Shown one piece after another: positions 33,720 through 52,087 of a stretch of 64,000 bases of DNA. The DNA lies in NCBI RefSeq assembly GCF_024223415.1, contig NZ_CP100500.1; one strand, 5' to 3'. The position numbers were made by a program, and so were the translations under genes. This DNA is from Escherichia coli. GTDB lineage: Bacteria; Pseudomonadota; Gammaproteobacteria; Enterobacterales; Enterobacteriaceae. A model generated the notes under the pieces. That model saw only the letters and a list, made by a program, of their open reading frames with translations, was not told the origin of the DNA and searched no databases. How positions within the stretch are numbered: position 1 is the stretch's first letter; each line of letters starts with the position of its first letter.

Positions 33720-35867
<2,148 letters not shown>

Positions 35868-36671: not shown

Positions 36672-37985
36672 CTAACACACTGATTTTAATAAGTTTCTTG
36701 TGTCACTTTGGTGACCATGGGACATCATTGGGACATAATCTGCCAGCTTCTGATTCAGCATTGCGATCTGTTCTGCATTACTGTCAGTCATCCATGCTCC
36801 GTATACATTGAACACCATCTGGGCACTTGCATGGCCCATCTGGCTGGCAATGAAGCTTGGGTTTGCTCCGGCAGATAATGACCAGCACGCATAAGTGTGT
36901 CGTGACTGGTATGCTTTCCGGTGCCTGATGCCCGCACGCTTAATGGCTGTTTCCCATGAGTCGCCAATAGAATCTACCTTGTAGATAAAACCGACCTGTT
37001 TGCTTTTTCTAACCACCTGGGGGTTAAATACGAAAGTACATTCATGGTTCACTGTACGTCCATATTCACGTAGTTGAACCTTGATGTGGTGCTGCTTACC
37101 CAGTCTTGTCATTTCAGCCTGATTTTTCAGGACACTGATAGCGGGCTGGATAAGATGCACAACCCTGTTTGTACTTGCTTCAGTTTTAGGTAGAGTGAAC
37201 TCACCGAGTTTCGTATAATTGCGCCTGATAGTAATTGTTCCTGCTTTCAGATCGATATCTTCCCAGGCCAGGGAGACCAGTTCACCATGACGCATTCCTG
37301 TGTACACAGCCAATGACCACAGGTTTTTCGTCTGCTGATGTCGGCAAGCATCTATCAGGCGAATAAATTCGTCACGAGTTAGCGGATCTGGCTCTGCCCT
37401 GGCTCTTTTAAGAGGCTTAATTCCCTGGAAGGGATTTGCTTCTAAGTAACCGTGATCTGCAGCAAACTGAAACATTCCAGCGATTGTCGTCATGTAATAA
37501 TTTACAGTAACGACGCTCCGTCCTTTTGCTGCTGCTTTGTTTTTCGTTGAATTCTGGTACCCGGTCAGCAAATCTTTCCTGATATACAGCAATTCCTCTT
37601 TAGTTACCGATGACACCAGTCTGCTGCCTCCAATTTTCGGAACCATCGTTCTTGCAACGGATTCATAGCGATTGAATGCATTTGCAGAGATCTCCATTCG
37701 TTTCAGATCCAGCCACTTTTCTTCAAGTTCCTTCACCGTAATTTCTTTTTTACTTACCCCAAAAGCCTGAAGGTTAGGGGAGTCAGGGAACTGTGCAGCA
37801 TAATCAAAGCTTCCTGTGCGGATGGCAAAACATACCGATGTCCGCAGTTCCCCGGCGATCTTCCTGTTCTTGGCAGTGTCAGGGACACCAAGATTTTCCC
37901 TGACACGTTTACCTTTAAAATTAAACCAGATGCGTAATGTGCCGCCGTGGTTTTCGACGCCTGTTGGATATTTGACTTTATCCAT
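36672..37985 (-). CDS. int: Tyrosine integrase (437 aa)
   Basis: Lambda-Int-like N-terminal arm-binding region (GTLRIWFNFKGKRVRE). C-terminal catalytic residues (R..HxxR..Y: RHRKAYQSRHTYA...NVYGAW). Abuts the att junction. Confidence 0.92.
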   Translation of the reverse strand: MDKVKYPTGVENHGGTLRIWFNFKGKRVRENLGVPDTAKNRKIAGELRTSVCFAIRTGSFDYAAQFPDSPNLQAFGVSKKEITVKELEEKWLDLKRMEISANAFNRYESVARTMVPKIGGSRLVSSVTKEELLYIRKDLLTGYQNSTKNKAAAKGRSVVTVNYYMTTIAGMFQFAADHGYLEANPFQGIKPLKRARAEPDPLTRDEFIRLIDACRHQQTKNLWSLAVYTGMRHGELVSLAWEDIDLKAGTITIRRNYTKLGEFTLPKTEASTNRVVHLIQPAISVLKNQAEMTRLGKQHHIKVQLREYGRTVNHECTFVFNPQVVRKSKQVGFIYKVDSIGDSWETAIKRAGIRHRKAYQSRHTYACWSLSAGANPSFIASQMGHASAQMVFNVYGAWMTDSNAEQIAMLNQKLADYVPMMSHGHQSDTRNLLKSVC

Positions 37986-38040
37986 TGATACCTCCAGACG
38001 CCCAAGAGCGATACGAGCTTACATACTTCATGGCATTAAA

Positions 38041-38277
38041 TCACCCAGGTTGTTTGTTTTTCATTGAAGCGACCCAGGCATCTATTGCTTTTCTGTTATA
38101 CATACATTCACTGGAAGGCTTTGGATTACCGTCTGGTGATACGTGAATATACTCTCTTCCAACCATCCAGCATTCTTTCCGGGCCCGAAGAATTGTGCCT
38201 GGTTTGAGCCCGGTAATTGCGATTAGAACGCTTTCACAAACCCATTCATTGGGAGCCAGTTGAATCACATTGCCCAT
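38041..38277 (-). CDS. xis: Excisionase-like DNA-binding protein (78 aa)
   Basis: Small basic ORF immediately upstream of int. GAGG RBS. Confidence 0.7.
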   Translation of the reverse strand: MGNVIQLAPNEWVCESVLIAITGLKPGTILRARKECWMVGREYIHVSPDGNPKPSSECMYNRKAIDAWVASMKNKQPG

Positions 38278-38285
38278 GCATTACC

Positions 38286-38432
38286 TCACACAACACTCAG
38301 CCCACGGCAGTGGCACCACACTTCAAACATTCGTTTCACAATTTCACGACAGTAGAAACCGTCAACATCTCGTGTCAGGTCATAGCGATTGCCGTAACGC
38401 TGGTGGACCCATTGTTCAAATGCTTTATTCAT
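38286..38432 (-). CDS. Hypothetical small protein (48 aa)
   Basis: Hand translation gives MNKAFEQWVHQRYGNRYDLTRDVDGFYCREIVKRMFEVWCHCRGLSVV*. AAGGAAG RBS. Tightly packed between neighbouring genes. Below the ORF-track cutoff. Confidence 0.55.
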   Translation of the reverse strand: MNKAFEQWVHQRYGNRYDLTRDVDGFYCREIVKRMFEVWCHCRGLSVV

Positions 38433-38435
38433 TCT

Positions 38436-38678
38436 TTACTTCCTTTTCATGGCCCGTAATTTTTTCAGATGAGTTTCCTGTTCTGTTTCTGCCAGAATTT
38501 GTCGGTATTCCTGATGATCGAGCCGTTCAAACGTTTCATTAAAATCGTTTATTTTTACCGACTGTGTTCGCCCATCCATTCTTCTGTACAACACGGTGTT
38601 ATTTATGCAGCGAATAATTTTTACCGGGTAACCGGCACTGTCGGTATACAGTTGTCCCTGATTAATCAAAGCGAACAT
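38436..38678 (-). CDS. Hypothetical phage protein (80 aa from the internal ATG with an AGGAG RBS)
   Basis: ORF 38436..38801. Start moved to MFALINQGQLY, which follows AGGAGAAAAAATG. Confidence 0.6.
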   Translation of the reverse strand: MFALINQGQLYTDSAGYPVKIIRCINNTVLYRRMDGRTQSVKINDFNETFERLDHQEYRQILAETEQETHLKKLRAMKRK

Positions 38679-38709
38679 TTTTTCTCCTGCTCTCTGAATA
38701 GTGAGAACT

Positions 38710-39075
38710 TCAGAGTCGTATGTTTGTAGCGGGTTCAATGCTGATGATTTCTGCTGAGATAAGCATCCCGGCCAGCCAGAGCTCTCCGGACAGGTTTTCA
38801 TCCTTGCATTCCAGTCCGCCGATATTAATGGTGGCTATGATATCGCGCTTATCCTCGACTTCTTCATAAGGCAGCGTTGCGTACAGGCTTTCAATAGCGC
38901 AACTGATAACATCCAGTCCGGTCAGATTGCCGCCGACAGTGACTTCGAATGTTTCGCGGTATTCCCATAGCCCGAAAGTTAATCGAACGGTTTGTTTTGC
39001 CATGCGCCCGCATGACGTCAGATTCGGGTCATAGTTCATTATTTGCGGTTGAGTATTCTGGGCGTTCATCTGCAT
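38710..39075 (-). CDS. Hypothetical phage protein (~121 aa)
   Basis: ORF 38710..39141. The start at MQMNAQNTQ avoids overlap with the upstream gene. Confidence 0.55.
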   Translation of the reverse strand: MQMNAQNTQPQIMNYDPNLTSCGRMAKQTVRLTFGLWEYRETFEVTVGGNLTGLDVISCAIESLYATLPYEEVEDKRDIIATINIGGLECKDENLSGELWLAGMLISAEIISIEPATNIRL

Positions 39076-39109
39076 TTCCCTTAGCCCGGCGGCCTGCCGG
39101 GCGTATAAG

Positions 39110-39937
39110 TTATTTAACCTGGATAAATGGTGTATTAGCACCGCTGGTCATGTATTGCGGCAGTGTGCCGTTCCATTTATTGATGGCTTCCAGCTCCATA
39201 ACGCCGGGGTTCTGACGCAGAGCTTCACCGCGTAAACGAATAGCATCAGCTTCGGCCTGGGCTTTTGTGCGAATCGCATCAGCCTGTCCGGCAGCTTCTG
39301 CGCGCAACATATTGGCTTCCGCTTCGCGCTGTTTTACTTCCTGCTCGCGCTGCAGTGTTTTCTGGTTCGCCGTGACTTTGGCATTAATGCTGTCGATAAC
39401 TGTTGGCGGGTACTCCGGCTTACCCACATATGAGAGGCTCATTACCTGAATACCGATAGGTGTCATCTCTGCCTGAATGTCTTTAAGAGCTTCATCCAGC
39501 AGCTCAGACTTGCCGCCGTCGATAAATTTGTCAGTGGTCATTTTGCTGGCCAGTCGGTTGAGTGCGTCGGCGATCTTCTGGCGCAGGTCAGTGTCGGTAA
39601 TGTCATCCACGCCTTTGCGGTAGGTCTGAAACACCGTGGTAACTTTGGATGGATCAACTTTGTAGGCCACGCCAATGTGATAGCCGATGGTTGTACCGTC
39701 ACTCATCTGGAAACTGAACGGTTCATCGTAGGTCTTCATTTGTTTGAAGGTGGGGAAGATATAAACTTCAGTATTCCAGCCAGTCCAGTAGCGACCAACA
39801 CCGACCACCTCACCGACGCCTTTGTCGTCGCCCAGTTTATTTACCTTGATGCCAACATTACCTGGTTCAACGCGATCGCAACCGACAAGGCCAATAGTCG
39901 GCAGAACAATGGCTAAAGCAAAAATAATTTTTTTCAT
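39110..39937 (-). CDS. SPFH/band-7 (HflK/C-, prohibitin-like) lipoprotein (275 aa)
   Basis: Signal peptide plus lipobox (GLVGC). Central band-7-like region. Ala/Glu/Arg/Gln-rich coiled-coil tail (QREQEVKQREAEANMLRAEAAGQADAIRTKAQAEADAIRLRGEALRQ). Confidence 0.7.
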   Translation of the reverse strand: MKKIIFALAIVLPTIGLVGCDRVEPGNVGIKVNKLGDDKGVGEVVGVGRYWTGWNTEVYIFPTFKQMKTYDEPFSFQMSDGTTIGYHIGVAYKVDPSKVTTVFQTYRKGVDDITDTDLRQKIADALNRLASKMTTDKFIDGGKSELLDEALKDIQAEMTPIGIQVMSLSYVGKPEYPPTVIDSINAKVTANQKTLQREQEVKQREAEANMLRAEAAGQADAIRTKAQAEADAIRLRGEALRQNPGVMELEAINKWNGTLPQYMTSGANTPFIQVK

Positions 39938-40122
39938 CTTTTATCCTTAGTGAAAGAAAGACCCTTGTAAATGGCATAAATGCAGGGCGGGGTCAGAAAC
40001 GCCAGTGCAAAGCCAGAAATAACTGCTATCGTATCCTTCATGGATATAAGGAACGGAACGAGTAATCCGTAAATGCATGCGATAATTGCCAGTAAAATTA
40101 CTATTGTGAAATACAGTCTCAT
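39934..40122 (-). CDS. Small two-TM membrane protein (62 aa), translationally coupled to the SPFH gene
   Basis: ORF track. Two hydrophobic segments. Its stop overlaps the SPFH start (ATGA). Confidence 0.6.
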   Translation of the reverse strand: MRLYFTIVILLAIIACIYGLLVPFLISMKDTIAVISGFALAFLTPPCIYAIYKGLSFTKDKR

Positions 40123-40145
40123 TGGTCTGTGGTATCCCGATATTT

Positions 40146-40253
40146 TTAACCGACTGACAGCGCAATAAAGAGAATAATGATTTCTGTTAGTGTCAGCACT
40201 GTGGCAAGGATTAAAATCAGTTTTACTCTGTTTAATTCACGGTTGCTTTTCAT
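40146..40253 (-). CDS. Candidate single-TM peptide (35 aa)
   Basis: Hand translation gives MKSNRELNRVKLILILATVLTLTEIIILFIALSVG*. Below the ORF-track cutoff. Same strand and operon. Confidence 0.35.
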   Translation of the reverse strand: MKSNRELNRVKLILILATVLTLTEIIILFIALSVG

Positions 40254-40298
40254 ATAAACGGTTAGTAAAAAACGGAAGAATTATTTTCTTCTTAATAT

Positions 40299-40880
40299 TT
40301 AATGTGTCACTGGCGCTTCTGGCATACCATGAGTATTCAGGTCGTGAATCATTTCATCCAGAAGGAGTTCAAGCCCTTCGCGCCCCATAGCAGAGAGAAT
40401 GAAACCATTATCAGGATCTGCGATGAGCATTTTTTGATAGAGAAACAGAACTCGCCCCATGCCTTCAGTTTCGCCATATTTTTCAATAAATCCCCATTCG
40501 ACATGGTTTTGCAGGGCAATGCGAAGTGGTCCTGGGTATATACTTATGCAACCATGTTTCCCCTTGTAAATAACTGCGCGATCTGTCGTCCCGTTATCGT
40601 TAGGGATATCAATAGTGCCGTTCTTGTCTTCCTCTTCACTGATAAACTTCATCACATACAGCCAGCGCCACTGAGCAACCTTCAGATCGACTGAAAATCT
40701 TCCCAGCAATCCGGCATCATCAGCTTCGGCAAGACATTGCATGATTCTTAAACCGTGCCAGTATGGATTATCGAATTCGCCATCATTAAGCCGCTGTACG
40801 GCCTGAATATAATCAATGGTTGTATTACCAATTTTTATGCCATGTGGCGTTACTTCTGGTCGGAACTCTGAATGATTCAT
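40299..40880 (-). CDS. Hypothetical phage protein (193 aa)
   Basis: ORF 40299..40937. Start at MNHSEFRPEV, which overlaps the upstream stop (ATGA). No recognisable motif. Confidence 0.6.
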   Translation of the reverse strand: MNHSEFRPEVTPHGIKIGNTTIDYIQAVQRLNDGEFDNPYWHGLRIMQCLAEADDAGLLGRFSVDLKVAQWRWLYVMKFISEEEDKNGTIDIPNDNGTTDRAVIYKGKHGCISIYPGPLRIALQNHVEWGFIEKYGETEGMGRVLFLYQKMLIADPDNGFILSAMGREGLELLLDEMIHDLNTHGMPEAPVTH

Positions 40881-41065
40881 AATATTTGCTCCTTTGCTGG
40901 TGGAATAATCGTGTAGCCAGCTCTTTTTGCCATCCACAGAAATGTATCCATGCAGCCAACGAATTCATTATCCAGCAGATGTTTTGAGTAAATTACTTCA
41001 CCATTTTCAATGGTTAGCAACACTCTTACTTTTTTATGTGTTATGTTTTGTTGTTTTTCTTCCAT
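40877..41065 (-). CDS. Hypothetical phage protein (62 aa)
   Basis: ORF 40877..41080. Start at MEEKQQNITHKK after a GGGAG RBS. Confidence 0.5.
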   Translation of the reverse strand: MEEKQQNITHKKVRVLLTIENGEVIYSKHLLDNEFVGCMDTFLWMAKRAGYTIIPPAKEQIL

Positions 41066-41069
41066 TGAC

Positions 41070-41183
41070 TTATCTCCCATATGCTTTGCGCAAATACAGG
41101 TTGGCTATATGAAGATAAGAATCTCCATGTTGTGCAATGAGGCAGGCAGTTTTATACGATGCCTTATGTTTCAGGAAAGTCAT
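41070..41183 (-). CDS. Candidate small protein (37 aa)
   Basis: Hand translation gives MTFLKHKASYKTACLIAQHGDSYLHIANLYLRKAYGR*. AGGAG RBS 7 nt upstream. Confidence 0.35.
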   Translation of the reverse strand: MTFLKHKASYKTACLIAQHGDSYLHIANLYLRKAYGR

Positions 41184-41261
41184 AACATAATCTCCTGCGA
41201 ATAAAGGTTGCAACAATCCCCGGCGATAAAACCGTAATAAACATTCAGGGAATATTTATTG

Positions 41262-41627
41262 TTATTGCGCTAATTCTTTTTCGGCAGCAGATTTTGCATA
41301 TTCACATGCAAAATTCAGAATTTCGCTGCCAAGTGTTTTTGTTTCGTGATTACTGGACATATGTAATACCTGTGTTGCATGCAATAAATGATAAACATTT
41401 ACCGCAAATGAGTCCGGCTCCAGACAAATGCCTTCATAATCATCTTGTTGTGAGGTTGTTTCTGTCATTGCTCCTGAAGTGCATGCGAGCCTGTTTTTGA
41501 CAATTCTCTTTCCTCTAATCACTATATCGGCAACATCTATTGCCTTTACAACCTCCGGGAGAAGTTCCGGGTTTGTATAATCAAAGTCATCAACATGGAG
41601 AACAGTTATGTTTTCGAACTTTTTCAT
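41262..41627 (-). CDS. Hypothetical protein (121 aa). Its C-terminal ~65 aa is paralogous to the N-terminus of the adjacent HTH protein.
   Basis: ORF track. GAGGA RBS. Self-alignment by eye with ORF 41756..42304. Confidence 0.65.
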   Translation of the reverse strand: MKKFENITVLHVDDFDYTNPELLPEVVKAIDVADIVIRGKRIVKNRLACTSGAMTETTSQQDDYEGICLEPDSFAVNVYHLLHATQVLHMSSNHETKTLGSEILNFACEYAKSAAEKELAQ

Positions 41628-41868
41628 GGCTTCCTCAGCTGACTTATATGTTCTGCTATATAGCGAGTCTCAGAAGTGTTTTCATATTGAGACTGTTTCC
41701 GCAATGATTGATAAAAATGTTCGCATGTACCTTGAGGGGCGAAGCGGCGATTATGTCACCATTGGTATTGGTTCTTCCGTAGAAGAGCTTCGCGAGATAA
41801 GGAGCAAACTTGTTGAGATGCGTCATGGTGTTGCTGCTCCTCACTTTTTGGTTGCTCCGGAGGAGTAA
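41608..41868 (+). CDS. Possible opposite-strand ORF (86 aa), convergently overlapping the HTH gene by 113 bp
   Basis: ORF track. GGAGA RBS 6 nt before the ATG at 41608. The sequence looks protein-like (LYVLLYSESQKCFHIETVSAMIDKNV...). It overlaps two minus-strand genes, so it is uncertain. Confidence 0.35.
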   Translation: MFSNFFMASSADLYVLLYSESQKCFHIETVSAMIDKNVRMYLEGRSGDYVTIGIGSSVEELREIRSKLVEMRHGVAAPHFLVAPEE

Positions 41869-42304
41869 CCTCGCCAGTTAACAGCCACATCGGATCGCAG
41901 CCAAGAATATTTGCCAGTGGGGTAAGCATACTGATAGTTGGTTCATACTCTCCGCTCTCCCACTGGATGATGATTTCTTCATCGAGATCGAGCAGCCTGG
42001 CGAGTTCGGCGGTTGTTAAGCCGCAGGCTTCGCGTTGGGTGCGAAGGTTAACCAGCCAGCTTTTAGGGAAGGATTGTTTTTGTTGTGCAGGAGAAGCCGT
42101 AGATAGAGCATATTCATGGATAAATTCCATTACCTCAATGCCCAGTTCCTTTGAGCGAGCACAATCCAGAAGATGGAATGTGCGTACAGCACTTAGCAAA
42201 TTTGCAATATTTAATGCAAAGGAATCAAGTTCTAAGCCTTCAAGCGTAACACAGCCGCAGTTGATAAAATTAGTTGTTTCTGGAGTTGCTTTTAGTGTCT
42301 TCAT
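41756..42304 (-). CDS. First gene of the leftward operon: N-terminal shared domain plus an XRE-type helix-turn-helix (182 aa)
   Basis: The HTH region is LRTQREACGLTTAELARLLDLDEEIIIQWESGEYEPTISMLTPLANILGCDPMWLLTGE. It occupies the slot where lambda has N. Confidence 0.7.
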   Translation of the reverse strand: MKTLKATPETTNFINCGCVTLEGLELDSFALNIANLLSAVRTFHLLDCARSKELGIEVMEFIHEYALSTASPAQQKQSFPKSWLVNLRTQREACGLTTAELARLLDLDEEIIIQWESGEYEPTISMLTPLANILGCDPMWLLTGEVTPPEQPKSEEQQHHDASQQVCSLSREALLRKNQYQW

Positions 42305-42334: not shown

Positions 42335-42386
42335 ATCAAGTTATAATTGATGGTGCGATATTATGCTTTGAGAAATAGGCTGTCAA
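42335..42386 (-). promoter_or_regulatory. Candidate pL: near-consensus sigma70 promoter with an operator-like palindrome at the start site
   Basis: On the minus strand: TTGACA (42381-42386), a 17-nt spacer, TAATAT (42358-42363). The 17-bp palindrome ATCAAGTTATAATTGAT lies at 42335-42351. Confidence 0.55.
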
Positions 42387-42413
42387 GAAAAAATTGATAC
42401 CGTGTGTTTTAGG

Positions 42414-42438
42414 CAGAAAAAAACGGGCAAAGCCCGTT
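42414..42438 (-). terminator. Intrinsic terminator after the cI-like repressor gene
   Basis: On the minus strand: AACGGGC-ttt-GCCCGTT followed by a T-run. Confidence 0.7.
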
Positions 42439-42449
42439 AAAATCAAAGA

Positions 42450-43139
42450 CTAACCAAATCTGTTTATATTGAATGGTACTGATGAGATCACTTTAGACTG
42501 GATATAAAGCAGAGCTAACCCCTCTTTTTCGATGCTCCATGGTTGATAATTGGGGTTATCAGATAACACCATGATTTTGCTTCCAATTTTTTGAAGTCTT
42601 TTCACGTAGCATTCTCCATCAAAACAAAATGCATAAATGCCATCGCCATCAAAATAAGTTACTGTCTTATCAAGAAAAAGAAGGTCGCCAGGTGAGATTG
42701 TGGGAGCCATACTGTCTCCTCTGGCGTTACCTATTTCTATATTTTTGAATGCCCGATTTCCAACAAGGCGTCGGGCATATTCAGGATCAAGTTCTATTGA
42801 GCGCACTACATCTATCAAGTCACCACGGACATGAGTTCCATCACCGCAACTAAACTCAACATCAAGGACATTAAACACGACGCTATCTGTTCTTGTCTGG
42901 TGTTTCTCTTGCGAGGAAAAGGTTGGTGAGGAGTCTTCACCTAAGAACCAGGATTGTGGATAACCGCTAATCTCGGATAAATGCGCGAGCTTATCACTCC
43001 GTGGAAATGTTTTTCCTGTTGTCCAGTACTGCACTGATTGCGCACTCACACCTAACTTGCGGGCCAGTTGAGCCTGAGTCCATCCTTTTGCTTTCAGCAT
43101 CGCGGCTATTCGATTTTCCGTGTTTTTGACGTTCTTCAT
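42450..43139 (-). CDS. cI: CI-like prophage repressor: XRE HTH plus S24 (LexA-like) autopeptidase (229 aa)
   Basis: N-terminal HTH (KGWTQAQLARKLGVSAQSVQYWTTGKTFP). C-terminal GDSMAPT (Ser) and YVKRL (Lys) catalytic dyad. ATG at 43137-43139. Confidence 0.85.
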   Translation of the reverse strand: MKNVKNTENRIAAMLKAKGWTQAQLARKLGVSAQSVQYWTTGKTFPRSDKLAHLSEISGYPQSWFLGEDSSPTFSSQEKHQTRTDSVVFNVLDVEFSCGDGTHVRGDLIDVVRSIELDPEYARRLVGNRAFKNIEIGNARGDSMAPTISPGDLLFLDKTVTYFDGDGIYAFCFDGECYVKRLQKIGSKIMVLSDNPNYQPWSIEKEGLALLYIQSKVISSVPFNINRFG

Positions 43140-43272
43140 GACCAAATCCTGTGGGTTTCTTTACAAGGATAAATCTTTACTTGATTTTAGTGTATTCGAT
43201 CCTTTTGCAACTTGCATGTTAATTTAAACTTGATGTATTCTTGATTCATAAAGTTAATGTTGGTGCTTTGTT
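43140..43272. promoter_or_regulatory. Immunity switch region (divergent pRM/pR-type promoters and operators)
   Basis: 133-bp AT-rich gap between the divergent repressor and cro-like genes. Repeated (A)CTTGAT motifs at about 43180, 43229 and 43240. Palindrome TGCAAcTTGCA at 43206-43216. The CTTGAT motif recurs in the pL palindrome. Confidence 0.5.
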
Positions 43273-43648: not shown

Positions 43649-44494
43649 ATGATGATCAATAAACAAAAATTAGTCAACCCTGAAAACCTGCCAGTTATTG
43701 CTGGTGTAGAAATTTCAACTGATATGGTTGGGCGCTTTAATCTGAATGCATTGCATCGAGCCAGCGGTCTTGGCCCCAATAAAGCTCCGACGCAGTGGTT
43801 GCGTACTCAGTCAGCTAAACAACTTATTGAAGAGCTGGAAAAAGAAACTATGCAGAATTGCATAGTTTCACTGGAAGGGCGGAATGGCGGTACTTTTGCG
43901 CACGAACTGCTTGCTGTTGAATATGCAGGATGGATTTCTCCTGCGTTCCGGTTGCAGGTGAACCAGACTTTTATTGACTATCGTACTGGCAAACTTACAG
44001 CGGGCAATAATCAGTTGCCCAATTTTGACGATCCGATCGCTGCTGCTGAAGCGTGGATTGAAGCCAAAAAATCCGAACGCCTTGCTCTCGGGTATGCAGA
44101 GCGTCAGGCTCGCTACATCAGCAAACTCGAAAGCCATCTCGCCGATGGCATCACTCCTGTGCAGTTCTGCAAACAGCTCAACGGTGTAAACACTCGTCAG
44201 ATTAATGCGTTCCTTGAAGAGCGTAACTGGCTGTATGACGACCGTCCGGAGGCTATGTATCCGCGCTGGCGTGTAAAAGCGTATGCACGTGACCAATACC
44301 TGACTGAGCGTTCTGGGCAGGTTGAGCAGGAAAACGGGGAAATGCGCGAGATTTTCAAACCACTCCTGAAGAAAAAAGGTGCCGCCTGGTTATATCGCCA
44401 TTATCTGAACGGCGAACTACCGATGAAGAAAACATGGGATGGGCTGTTTACCCATAACACTGAGCTCGCGAATCTTTTACAGGAGAGCAAATGA
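43649..44494 (+). CDS. KilA-N domain / antirepressor (Ant/KilAC)-type protein (281 aa)
   Basis: N-terminal KilA-N-like region (RFNLNALHRASGLGPNKAPTQWLR...TFAHELLAVEYAGWISPAFRLQV). C-terminal antirepressor-like domain. Confidence 0.65.
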   Translation: MMINKQKLVNPENLPVIAGVEISTDMVGRFNLNALHRASGLGPNKAPTQWLRTQSAKQLIEELEKETMQNCIVSLEGRNGGTFAHELLAVEYAGWISPAFRLQVNQTFIDYRTGKLTAGNNQLPNFDDPIAAAEAWIEAKKSERLALGYAERQARYISKLESHLADGITPVQFCKQLNGVNTRQINAFLEERNWLYDDRPEAMYPRWRVKAYARDQYLTERSGQVEQENGEMREIFKPLLKKKGAAWLYRHYLNGELPMKKTWDGLFTHNTELANLLQESK

Positions 44495-44703
44495 TGCAAA
44501 CCAAGACATGTGTAACTGGTGATGTCGATCTGAAACCTTGCCCGTTCTGCGGAAATCCGGAAGTACAACTCATTGAGGTGAAATATTTTCTGGATGGCGA
44601 TGATGGTTATTACGTCGCATGTACTTGCTGTAACGCAAACCAGATTCCTGATTCGAAAGAACGTGCTGTTCATGACTGGAACCAGCGCGAAAACGCGGAT
44701 TGA
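44491..44703 (+). CDS. lar: Lar-family restriction alleviation protein (70 aa)
   Basis: KPCPFCG...CTCC zinc-ribbon pattern typical of Lar-family proteins. ATGA overlap with the upstream gene. Confidence 0.6.
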   Translation: MMQTKTCVTGDVDLKPCPFCGNPEVQLIEVKYFLDGDDGYYVACTCCNANQIPDSKERAVHDWNQRENAD

Positions 44704-45380: not shown

Positions 45381-45571
45381 TTAGTTACGAAATTATTATT
45401 TCCACAACTGAATACAGAAACGATGTATCAGTTAGCACGGATGTATCTGTCTGGCACCGTCGCTATAAATCCAGAAAAACGGCAGAACTGAAAGCGGCAG
45501 AGATGTGTGAAACCATCTCAATGAAAGGTAGCCCGGTTAAATACGTAACTACGGCGGAGGTGCGTCCATGA
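45377..45571 (+). CDS. Hypothetical phage protein (64 aa)
   Basis: ORF 45362..45571. The ATG at 45377 overlaps the rha stop (ATGA). Confidence 0.5.
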   Translation: MISYEIIISTTEYRNDVSVSTDVSVWHRRYKSRKTAELKAAEMCETISMKGSPVKYVTTAEVRP

Positions 45572-45792
45572 TCCGCCACATCGTTAATTTCCGGTATCAC
45601 CGATACAACCATTGCCCCCGTGTGGGGCAGTGGTTCACCACCAGCAACGGCCACGTTCTGCGGGTTTGCCTGGTCAATACAGAAAGCCAGAAGGTTGTCT
45701 GCCAGGTTCAGGGACGTACTCATACCCTGAGTTATCCACTGGCAGTGTTTCAGTCCGGAAAAATGTTTAAACGCCTGGGAGGTGCCGTGTGA
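45568..45792 (+). CDS. Hypothetical phage protein (74 aa)
   Basis: ORF track. ATGA coupling on both sides. Confidence 0.5.
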   Translation: MIRHIVNFRYHRYNHCPRVGQWFTTSNGHVLRVCLVNTESQKVVCQVQGRTHTLSYPLAVFQSGKMFKRLGGAV

Positions 45793-50362: not shown

Positions 50363-50379
50363 TTTTGTGGAGAAAGTTG

Positions 50380-50802
50380 ATGCGTGATATTCAAATGGTT
50401 CTTGAACGTTGGGGGGCATGGGTCGCAAATAATCATGAAGACGTGGAATGGTCAGGCATTGCCGCCGGATTTAAGGGGCTGATACCGTCAAAAGTAAAAT
50501 CGCGATCGCAGTGTTCCGATGATGACGCGATGATTATATGTGGTTGTATGGCTCGCCTGAAAAAGAACAACGCCGATATGCATGACATGCTGGTTGATTA
50601 CTACGTATATGGGATGACGTTCATGAAGTTAGCAATGAAACATGGATGTTCGGATACGCATATTGGAAAGCGTTTGCAAAAAGCTGAAGGAGTGGTTGAT
50701 GGTATGTTGATGATGCTAGATGTTCGCCTTGAGATGGATCGATATGTGAGCACAAATTATTCGATACGTCGTAAAACTGCGTCCTCCAGGGCAGGGATAT
50801 AA
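50380..50802 (+). CDS. Q: Late-gene antiterminator Q (140 aa)
   Basis: [22 protein letters not shown]...[18 protein letters not shown]... resembles the Q proteins of Stx-type lambdoid phages. Confidence 0.8.
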
Positions 50803-50980: not shown

Positions 50981-52087
50981 TCAGAACTGATAAACCAGAC
51001 CAACAGCGACAATATCGTCGGTTGATACTCCTGTTCTTTCAGTGAATTTATTTTTATCGAGCATATTGATTTTGTAATCTATGTATGTAGACATATTTTT
51101 GTTGAAGTAATAAGAAGCCCCTACTTCAACGAATTTTTCAATATATCCGTCATCATGTTTTTTACTAATATCAGTACTGGATGAAAGGTTTTTTGCTTTA
51201 GAGTGGGTATAAGCAAGAGACGGGCGTAATCCAAAGTCGAACTGGTATTGTGCCACAACAGTGAAATCTTCGGTTTTATTCGCCACTCCTGAAATATTAT
51301 CACCATACGATATTGCACGGGTATTATTTGTTTCACCATAACTGGCAGCCAGGTACAGATTATTTGCGTCATATTTTACCCCGGTGGCCCACTGTTCAGC
51401 TTTTTTCCCTTTACCAAGCTCAGCCTTTTTCTGATTTTTAGTACGATCAGCAGCGCCGTATGCTGCGACAAAACCAAATCCTTCATATTCATAGCTGACA
51501 GAGCCACCTACACCCTCTCCGTTTGAAGTATCTGGTTTATCCTTGCGTTCATTTTTTCCCAGATACTGAATTGCAAAGCTAAGCCCATCGACCAGTCCAA
51601 AAAAGTCAGTGTTGCGGTATGTGGCAACACCGCCTACACGACCAACGAAGAAGTTATCCTTTTGCGCTGCGGTAGGTCCAAACTCCGGGAAGACGTCAGT
51701 GTAGCTTAATGCGTCGTACACCACGCCGTAGTTACGACCATAATCAAGAGAGCCAGCATCTGCAAGCTTCAGACCAGCGTATGCCAGGCGAGTCTTGTTT
51801 CCAGTTTGAGCTCCATCCCCTTCAGGGTTGTTCCCCTGGAAATTATATTCCCACTGACCAAAACCAGTAATATAATTATTTATTTGGGTTTCACCTCTGA
51901 ATCCAAGGCGTGCGTAAGTCTGATCTCCGTTTTGGTCCTTATCAGAAGAAAAATAATGTAAACCAACTGCTTTACCGTATAAATCCACTTTGTTTGCATC
52001 TTTATTGTATATTTATGCTGCATTTGAAGACGTTGCCAGAAATACTGATGCTGCTACAGCAGAAAGTGCCACTGTTAAATTTTTCAT
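50981..52087 (-). pseudogene. Phage-borne OmpC/NmpC/Lc-type porin gene interrupted by an in-frame TAA just after the signal peptide
   Basis: ATG at 52085-52087 gives MKNLTVALSAVAASVFLATSSNAA, then TAA (52013-52015), then [22 protein letters not shown]... through to the C-terminal ...VGLVYQF. Porins normally read AAEIYNKD here, so GAA has become TAA. Confidence 0.8.

Follow-up and report, generated by a model that had tools for sequence, protein, structure and literature searches.

Analysis of a 64-kb stretch of Escherichia coli chromosome (contig NZ_CP100500.1; referred to here as the window) showed that the genes packed between a phage excisionase gene (xis) and a cI-like repressor gene are, judged from their sequences, the intact early-left (pL) operon of a phiP27-family lambdoid prophage inserted in yecE, a region that had already been deposited. 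The operon comprises 11 minus-strand open reading frames (ORFs), labeled A to K, from A beside xis to K beside the repressor gene. The explanation that best fits the data as a whole, and in which we place moderate confidence, is that of a repressor-controlled early-left operon with swappable modules, in which the products of two overlapping genes, the two-transmembrane (two-TM) protein E and the SPFH-domain lipoprotein D, would form an inner-membrane scaffold made early in lytic growth.

Identity of the operon

The gene order on the minus strand of the window is cmoA (34688 to 35431), yecN, yecE, integrase, and excisionase. The tyrosine integrase gene (36672 to 37985, minus strand) abuts yecE, and the excisionase gene (38041 to 38277, minus strand) was assigned by family matches (DUF1233, phrog_539). 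ORFs A to K lie between the latter and the gene for the cI-like S24/HTH repressor (42450 to 43145). When compared to phage records by megablast, window positions 38000 to 42047 matched L02 to L10 of the Stx2e phage phiP27 (AJ298298/NC_003356) at 97.5% nucleotide identity. The match covers 73% of the 5.3-kb query and integration next to yecE is shared, which places the prophage in the phiP27 family. The integrase, the excisionase, and the yecE attachment site of phiP27 are all as in the window, and so is the order of its ORFs: L03/L04 (DUF4222 and DUF5406), L05 (SPFH lipoprotein), L06 (G), L07 (H), L08 (J), and L09 (an ORF on the plus strand). The two differ in the immunity region and in the N-terminal part of K, the identity ending inside K. 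The phiP27 record, deposited in 2002, annotates L02 to L10 as "unknown"; A, E, F, and I are unannotated in it, and L05 is named "putative serine protease" or "lipoprotein." The genome reference, Recktenwald and Schmidt 2002, is listed in PMC7366253. Of 5,426 complete E. coli genomes, 943 had a portion of the 5.3-kb region, 161 had the segment from G to I, and 28 had 80% or more of the region. The yecE context of the prophage is shared between E. coli and Citrobacter.

A preliminary description of this DNA had placed the genes in an early-left operon, and their position agrees with this: they lie past a terminator-like site after the repressor gene and read toward xis and int. Its coordinates for six minus-strand ORFs (38286 to 38432, 38710 to 39075, 40146 to 40253, 40299 to 40880, 40877 to 41065, and 41070 to 41183) were all correct. 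However, to call these genes unrecognizable was an overstatement. Nine of the 11 ORFs fall in PHROG families, and D (SPFH/Band 7), C (DUF5406), B (DUF4222), and K (HTH_3) have assigned domains. The PGAP annotation labels D "SPFH domain-containing," C "DUF5406," B "DUF4222," and K "helix-turn-helix," and it omits F, I, and the plus-strand ORF. The description had also considered many of the genes to be translationally coupled. There are indeed ATGA overlaps at H/G and E/D and three gaps of less than 10 nt (3 nt at B/A, 4 nt at I/H, and 8 nt at A/xis), but these make up only 5 of the 11 junctions, and the remaining gaps are 23 to 128 nt long.

Control region and transcription

A hairpin and T-run resembling an intrinsic terminator (7-bp stem with five GC pairs, followed by T8) is found directly after the repressor stop codon (42422 to 42438, minus strand) and would separate the repressor transcript from the early-left operon. 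Next to it is a candidate pL promoter, TTGACA-17-TAATAT (42358 to 42386, minus strand). It agrees with the consensus at 10 of 12 positions and, over the 5.8 kb scanned, ranks among the top two promoter-like sites. An operator-like palindrome, ATCAAN7TTGAT, with exact half-sites lies between the −10 hexamer and the first gene (42335 to 42351), and a second operator-like site with one mismatch overlaps the −35 hexamer (42382 to 42398). A related copy of the palindrome is found at 43169 to 43185, in the cI-cro intergenic region. The 64-kb window contains six matches to the palindrome at one mismatch or fewer, and three of the six are in the two control regions. We infer that these palindromes are putative operators.

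No terminator-like site meeting the scan criteria was found on the minus strand between 42422 and xis. After inactivation of the repressor, transcription would start from the sigma-70-like promoter at 42386 to 42358 and proceed through about 11 ORFs into xis and int. Because there is no strong intrinsic-terminator-like site on this route, an N/nut system would be neither present nor needed. The first pL gene would encode the HTH regulator K rather than N. In K (182 amino acids [aa]; 41756 to 42304, minus strand), a domain paralogous to J at the N terminus precedes an XRE/HTH_3 domain. This HTH is similar to the DNA-binding domain of P22 C2, and K belongs to phrog_4836, whose name, "CII-like regulator," is an annotation label only.

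The E-D membrane cassette

D (39110 to 39937, minus strand; L05 of phiP27; phrog_200) encodes a 275-aa lipoprotein with a lipobox, an SPFH/Band 7 domain, and a coiled-coil tail. The Pfam model Band_7 (PF01145) matched residues 22 to 208 with 109.2 bits compared to a cutoff of 23.6. The N terminus, MKKIIFALAIVLPTIGLVGC followed by DR, reads as the lipobox LVGC with Asp at position +2. In E. coli, Asp at +2 is the classical inner-membrane retention signal for lipoproteins. The closest specific matches of D were HflC (TIGR01932, E 3.9e-6) and HflK in the PDB (E 4e-4). A literature search by accession number found no paper on D. In one SSU5-like variant (L097/L098, 3001 to 3831), the lipobox Cys is replaced by Tyr (…GIIGYDR…). 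This replacement suggests that the variant protein probably has an uncleaved signal anchor with the same predicted topology.

E (39934 to 40122, minus strand; phrog_1130), a 62-aa two-TM inner-membrane protein, overlaps D by ATGA and is its obligate partner upstream. An E-like ORF precedes, and usually overlaps, D in 79 out of 79 informative IMG/VR loci. The pair is also present in the P2-like phage P88, a P1-like plasmid prophage, the N4-like Klebsiella phage MY01, SSU5-like 110-kb phage-plasmids, and a Pastis-like contig. N4-like phages carrying an SPFH lipoprotein are classed as Schitoviridae (PMC13239085). A locus search with D alone gave near-identical loci only, and the diversity described here was drawn from a protein search and contig look-ups. 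The E partners, 61 to 78 aa long in the lineages compared, are 20 to 39% identical to E of the window (84% in a close phiP27-family variant) and keep residues Y18, P23, S27, V34, G37, and P45 as well as a motif, LLPxMISxxD, between the two helices. D, on the other hand, is 74 to 100% identical across Escherichia, Salmonella, Klebsiella, Enterobacter, Citrobacter, Kosakonia, Raoultella, and Erwinia or Klebsiella phages. The D gene was also found on 221 plasmids, most of them non-mobilizable, and the best-scoring among the matches listed are about 90 to 95 kb.

The cassette resembles two known systems, each in part. First, like D, HflK and HflC of the FtsH-modulating complex of E. coli (PDB 7vhp/7vhq) consist of an SPFH/Band 7 domain followed by a coiled-coil tail and have an N-terminal membrane anchor, and the SPFH domain of D is likewise predicted to be periplasmic. 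To our knowledge, among the four SPFH proteins of E. coli, only HflK and HflC have this periplasmic topology. D differs from them in being a single SPFH protein with a lipid anchor (Cys, Asp at +2) in place of a TM helix, and its partner is the 62-aa two-TM protein, whereas HflK and HflC partner with a second SPFH subunit. Second, NfeD-SPFH operons such as YbbJ-QmcA have a small membrane protein gene adjacent to, and translationally coupled with, the SPFH gene, as do E and D. However, E lacks an NfeD or OB-fold domain, its one Pfam match (COX8, E 0.36) being at chance level, and orientation and topology differ from those of QmcA, which faces the cytoplasm.

One alternative, which we consider unlikely, is that the SPFH cassette is a lysogenic-conversion (moron) gene, i.e., a virulence or fitness factor expressed by the prophage and acting on the animal host or the cell surface. 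The precedent is PM0222 of Pasteurella multocida, an SPFH-family protein encoded on a lambda-like prophage island, which is released in outer-membrane vesicles, signals through TLR1/2, and contributes to virulence (PMC9872710). D is also a lipoprotein, its gene region has a GC content of about 50% compared to 41 to 45% for the neighbors, and the cassette is common in prophages of E. coli strains that produce Shiga toxin (STEC) and of avian pathogenic E. coli (APEC). However, the homology of D with PM0222 is only putative, and PM0222, unlike D, has been characterized as a virulence factor that is secreted. With Asp at +2, D is predicted to stay in the inner membrane and not to reach the surface. 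Early operons of P2-like and lambdoid phages also include the E-D pair, with 4-nt overlaps, and the pair is found as well in early or middle clusters of N4-like phages; the latter (Schitoviridae) are taken as virulent. Finally, the promoter scan gave no convincing promoter belonging to the cassette itself; the promoter-like sites upstream were weak (9 of 12). Downstream of the cassette is a GC-rich hairpin that has no U-tract. This hairpin (39076 to 39109, minus strand; GCCCGGC...GCCGGGC, −17.1 kcal/mol) lies directly after the D stop codon and may be an mRNA-stabilizing element or a cassette boundary; its z-score is −1.98, and 9 of 200 shuffled sequences were as stable.

A second alternative is that D is a substitute for CIII that mimics or displaces HflK/HflC around FtsH, stabilizes the CII-like K, and thereby biases the choice between lysis and lysogeny. 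The best specific matches of D to HflC and HflK and the shared predicted periplasmic SPFH topology are consistent with it, as are the location of D in the pL operon, where lambda has cIII, and the phrog_4836 label of K. Furthermore, HflKC modulates FtsH proteolysis of lambda CII, a link that was also noted in a paper on a Pseudomonas satellite (PMC4936722). Several observations make this alternative improbable. Sibling prophages have K and J without E-D, and conversely, P2-like, P1-like, SSU5-like, and N4-like phages have E-D without K. In addition, "CII-like" is a matter of annotation, and K is found at the position of N, not after cro.

Absence of lambda delayed-early functions

The preliminary description had reported no exo/bet/gam, kil, cIII, ssb, or N-like gene in this operon, and Pfam, PHROG, NCBIfam, and PADLOC scans bore this out: none of the 11 ORFs matched Exo/YqaJ, Bet/RecT/Erf, Gam, SSB, Kil, CIII, or N (Pfam, E of ≤1). 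Profile searches, the check set beforehand for this claim, assigned no ORF to an ordinary recombination or replication family. Likewise, no HMM or fold search linked any of ORFs A to K to replication families, and no recombinase-like fold was found for the models of G or C. No arginine-rich N-terminal motif was visible on reading the sequences of ORFs A to K, and the first pL gene encodes a 182-aa HTH_3 protein instead of a small arginine-rich one. No boxA-like site was found between 41 and 43.7 kb, which includes the pL and pR leaders, and Rfam gave nothing above the gathering score, including no small RNA such as DicF. On the right arm up to Q, the larger ORFs scanned encode YdaS/Cro-like, KilA-N/ANT, Lar-like, Ash/Rha, O/DnaD-like, DnaC-like, DnaB-like, and DUF968-HNH proteins and a Q-like antiterminator, and no recombinase was found among them. 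In lambdoid phages other than lambda, absence of Red or N is not unusual.

Compared to the lambda pL operon (N, ral, sieB, cIII, kil, gam, bet, exo, ea genes, xis, and int), the operon in the window matches in where it lies and how it is oriented relative to the repressor and xis/int, in its repressor-controlled promoter with operator-like sites, and in its mosaic "ea"-type accessory region beside xis. It differs in having an HTH regulator first, in carrying no N/nut, CIII, Kil, Gam, Bet, or Exo, and in having no strong terminator-like site along its length. It is conceivable that recombination, replication, or antitermination proteins are hidden among the ORFs, having diverged past recognition by sequence. 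A, H, I, and J have no structure model, and in phages, N, Kil, and CIII are short, fast-evolving proteins. Even so, given no HMM match at an E of ≤1, no boxA-like site, an HTH protein as the first pL gene, and no arginine-rich N-terminal motif in the ORFs, we regard such hidden functions as highly improbable. A scan of nine accessory ORFs (A to H and J; I was outside the scan) with PADLOC-DB 2.0 gave no match to a defense model, and K matched PADLOC models (RmrA, HTH_VI, and CapH) solely through its generic HTH.

Mosaicism

The presence or absence of A to K in 80 related loci followed 16 patterns; these loci were selected through D, and E-D is constant in them. G and F can be replaced by genes for 119-aa and 130-aa proteins, and C can be replaced by Bro/Rha-like genes. 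PhiR49_2 and the E. coli prophage L013 keep int/xis/A and G to K and have Ea22, EaA, DUF551, and DUF4752 genes in place of the C-to-F (SPFH) block, whereas Citrobacter prophages at the yecE site keep I, an H-like gene, and G. These patterns and replacements mark the slot as one in which cassettes are exchanged, in line with what the preliminary description had expected. By comparison of these loci, the independently exchangeable modules are (i) K, J, and the antisense gene on the plus strand; (ii) I-H-G; (iii) E-D; and (iv) the genes for DUF5406, DUF4222, and A beside xis.

The I-H-G block and ORF F

I (41070 to 41183, minus strand) encodes a microprotein of 37 aa and is preceded by the Shine-Dalgarno sequence AGGAG. 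It has exactly 37 codons in five E. coli loci at 73 to 77% nucleotide identity, and the substitutions by codon position were 9/3/14, 7/3/16, and 10/4/17, with most at third positions and fewest at second positions. On the strength of this codon-position bias and of the 37 codons preserved across loci, I is a real gene. In Citrobacter prophages, I is 76% identical compared to 50% for G and 47% for H, and it is thus the best-conserved protein of the block.

H (62 aa; 40877 to 41065, minus strand; phrog_340; L07 of phiP27) overlaps G by ATGA and has no relative among PDB sequences. G (193 aa; 40299 to 40880, minus strand; phrog_1515; L06 of phiP27) is predicted to be a soluble alpha/beta protein, and its model is confident (pLDDT 89, pTM 0.83). 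A Foldseek search of BFVD with this model gave nothing at an E of ≤1e-3, and single-sequence and profile searches of PDB sequences with G, C, J, H, and B gave nothing meaningful. No Pfam domain was found in the G family, either in 24 homologs or in longer members of up to 399 aa. Going by the model, G has no known fold and may define a new fold family. The relatives of G named in the first search were from Escherichia and Citrobacter only, and an exhaustive profile search through 1.84 billion proteins yielded 132 clusters (at 50% identity), none with a Pfam domain. The I-H-G block is limited to yecE-type prophages of Escherichia and Citrobacter, and G and H are frameshifted in some genomes.

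F (40146 to 40253, minus strand), a hydrophobic ORF of 35 aa, is located in the conserved leader that separates G from E. No Shine-Dalgarno sequence precedes it, substitutions fall 3/2/2 across the codon positions, the flanking sequence is as conserved as the ORF, and the ATG is lost in one variant, so that its coding is doubtful. F was also considered as a part of the SPFH cassette and was rejected, as it co-occurs with G and not with E-D and has no coding signature. Thus, of the four ORFs that the preliminary description had added by hand as shorter than 60 aa, A and H are conserved and have PHROG families and I is real, but F as a gene is not supported. The leader between G and F/E (40254 to 40298, minus strand) is about 95% conserved in a relative at 84% identity, above the flanking G gene. 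Within this leader, a short hairpin precedes U6; the feature could serve as a partial terminator or have a regulatory role before the SPFH cassette.

The lack of a coding signature in F, the omission of F, I, and the plus-strand ORF by PGAP, and the frameshifted copies of G and H could be taken to mean that the ORFs are mostly nonfunctional remnants of a decaying cryptic prophage and that the small ones are annotation noise. We consider this very unlikely. Codon-position bias is seen in I and in the plus-strand ORF, the ORFs are intact across E. coli and Citrobacter at 50 to 76% identity, and D is conserved at 74 to 100% across many genera. The region is also nearly identical to that of phiP27, which was deposited as a complete phage genome and is inducible.

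K, J, and the antisense gene

J (121 aa; 41262 to 41627, minus strand; L08 of phiP27) falls in phrog_5451 and phrog_4587. Its conserved core is the C-terminal 66 to 68 aa (41262 to 41468), and PGAP and the relatives call this short form alone. Residues 69 to 115 of J and residues 24 to 70 of K (42095 to 42235) are 45% identical over 47 aa (E 4e-10). Other immunity types have a different N-terminal domain of K, again paired with a matching small J-like protein. The shared domain and these matched pairs suggest that J pairs with K. Through pairing of the common domain, J would probably modulate or titrate K.

A gene on the plus strand (41608 to 41868; 86 aa; L09 of phiP27; phrog_6104, E 9.6e-50), which was overlooked in the preliminary description, is placed antisense between J and K, with an overlap that takes in the final 37 codons of K. 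This ORF is intact when compared to a locus at 76% nucleotide identity, with substitutions of 16/11/36 by codon position, whereas the frame of K is unconserved within the overlap in the same locus. The ORF has a GGAG Shine-Dalgarno sequence, and a perfect TATAAT is found upstream at 41576 to 41581, with no good −35 hexamer.

Genes C, B, and A next to xis

C (121 aa; 38710 to 39075, minus strand; L04 of phiP27; phrog_3409) encodes a DUF5406 protein (PF17400, 80.5 bits compared to a cutoff of 25). Its start codon is uncertain (39075, 39069, or 39039), and conservation begins at MNYDPN. The model of C is confident and has no known fold. Homologs were found in Pseudomonas, Stutzerimonas, and Serratia. 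Some are in Mu-like early regions, with the transposition ATPase gene on one side and the DUF3164/GemA/Mor genes on the other, and others are beside the integrase of lambdoid prophages that have Erf and SSB. A functional tie between DUF5406 and the SPFH gene was considered and rejected. Because the homolog loci in Pseudomonas and Serratia have no SPFH gene nearby, C is, by this comparison, an independent early accessory gene. A literature search found no paper mentioning "DUF5406."

B (38436 to 38678, minus strand; phrog_285) encodes an 80-aa DUF4222 protein (PF13973, 58.1 bits compared to a cutoff of 27). A Shine-Dalgarno sequence precedes the 80-aa start, and the longer ORF reaching to 38801 is probably unused. 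A (38286 to 38432, minus strand; phrog_3871) encodes a Cys/His-rich protein of 48 aa and travels with xis and int. DUF4222 was met in two other places. A 74-aa ORF of the early-right region (45568 to 45792, plus strand; phrog_1153) has a weak DUF4222 match (E 0.015), so that this prophage may have two DUF4222 genes, one of them diverged. In the E. coli prophage L013, a DUF4222 ORF is found just upstream of a Rha-family gene and overlaps it.

Two further genes of the prophage region were seen outside the early-left operon. Between the KilA-N/ANT and Ash/Rha genes of the early-right operon is a Lar-like restriction-alleviation gene (44491 to 44703, plus strand; PF14354, E 4.8e-11). A complete Gram-negative porin gene (Porin_1, E 4.8e-123) is found at 50981 to 51988 (minus strand), on the opposite strand and just downstream of the gene for the Q-like antiterminator (50365 to 50802), and looks like a phage-borne porin moron.

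Discussion

In the explanation that we favor, E and D would act jointly at the inner membrane, E as a two-TM protein with a short periplasmic loop. D would be exported, lipidated, and held in the inner membrane by its Asp at +2, and by analogy with HflK/HflC it would oligomerize early in lytic growth into an SPFH scaffold on the periplasmic face. This scaffold may enclose or reorganize a complex of the host inner membrane, with FtsH and a DNA-entry route as the alternatives, to the benefit of the phage. Action of E-D in the lytic phase is suggested because temperate phages have the pair in their early operons and N4-like phages have it as well. The remaining small proteins would be non-essential early accessory factors, and G, C, and the small proteins are, as the preliminary description had proposed, candidates for host-interaction functions.

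Several points weigh against this explanation. First, the target of the scaffold is purely something that we infer. Second, the promoter and terminator calls are consensus matches, and their count is not above the shuffled expectation. Third, weak A/U-rich or short hairpins followed by U-runs occur after J (41230 to 41255) and G (40265 to 40290); if these are partial terminators, read-through to xis and int is not assured. Fourth, the scores of D are far below the equivalog cutoffs for HflC (25.9 compared to 134.4 bits) and HflK (23.1 compared to 159.4 bits), and no NfeD-like partner is present. Fifth, the higher GC content of the D gene region also fits an independently expressed moron. Finally, according to a 2026 paper (PMC13239085), why a phage should carry an SPFH lipoprotein "remains unclear."

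A more far-reaching possibility, which we put forward only tentatively, is that E-D is an undescribed, widely mobile membrane module present in at least five unrelated lineages (lambdoid, P2-like, P1-like, SSU5-like, and N4-like) and that it cages an inner-membrane complex during lytic growth. The complex might be FtsH, through mimicry of HflK/C, or it might be one of DNA entry, with superinfection exclusion as the result. This possibility would further include G as a new fold family and I as a conserved early microprotein of 37 aa.

For a phage specialist, there is little surprise in the region as such, which is the accessory early-left part of a phage family sequenced in 2002. The modest leads that it offers are the SPFH/two-TM cassette, G with no known fold, the 37-aa protein, and the antisense gene. 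Two of its genes, those for the 37-aa I and for the 86-aa antisense ORF, are under purifying selection and were missed by automatic annotation. Such prophages are frequent in Shiga-toxin-producing and avian pathogenic E. coli, and to know which of the cassettes alter induction, exclusion, or host fitness would matter for the biology of Stx phages. If E-D acts on FtsH or on DNA entry, it would represent a new, general phage strategy at the inner membrane.

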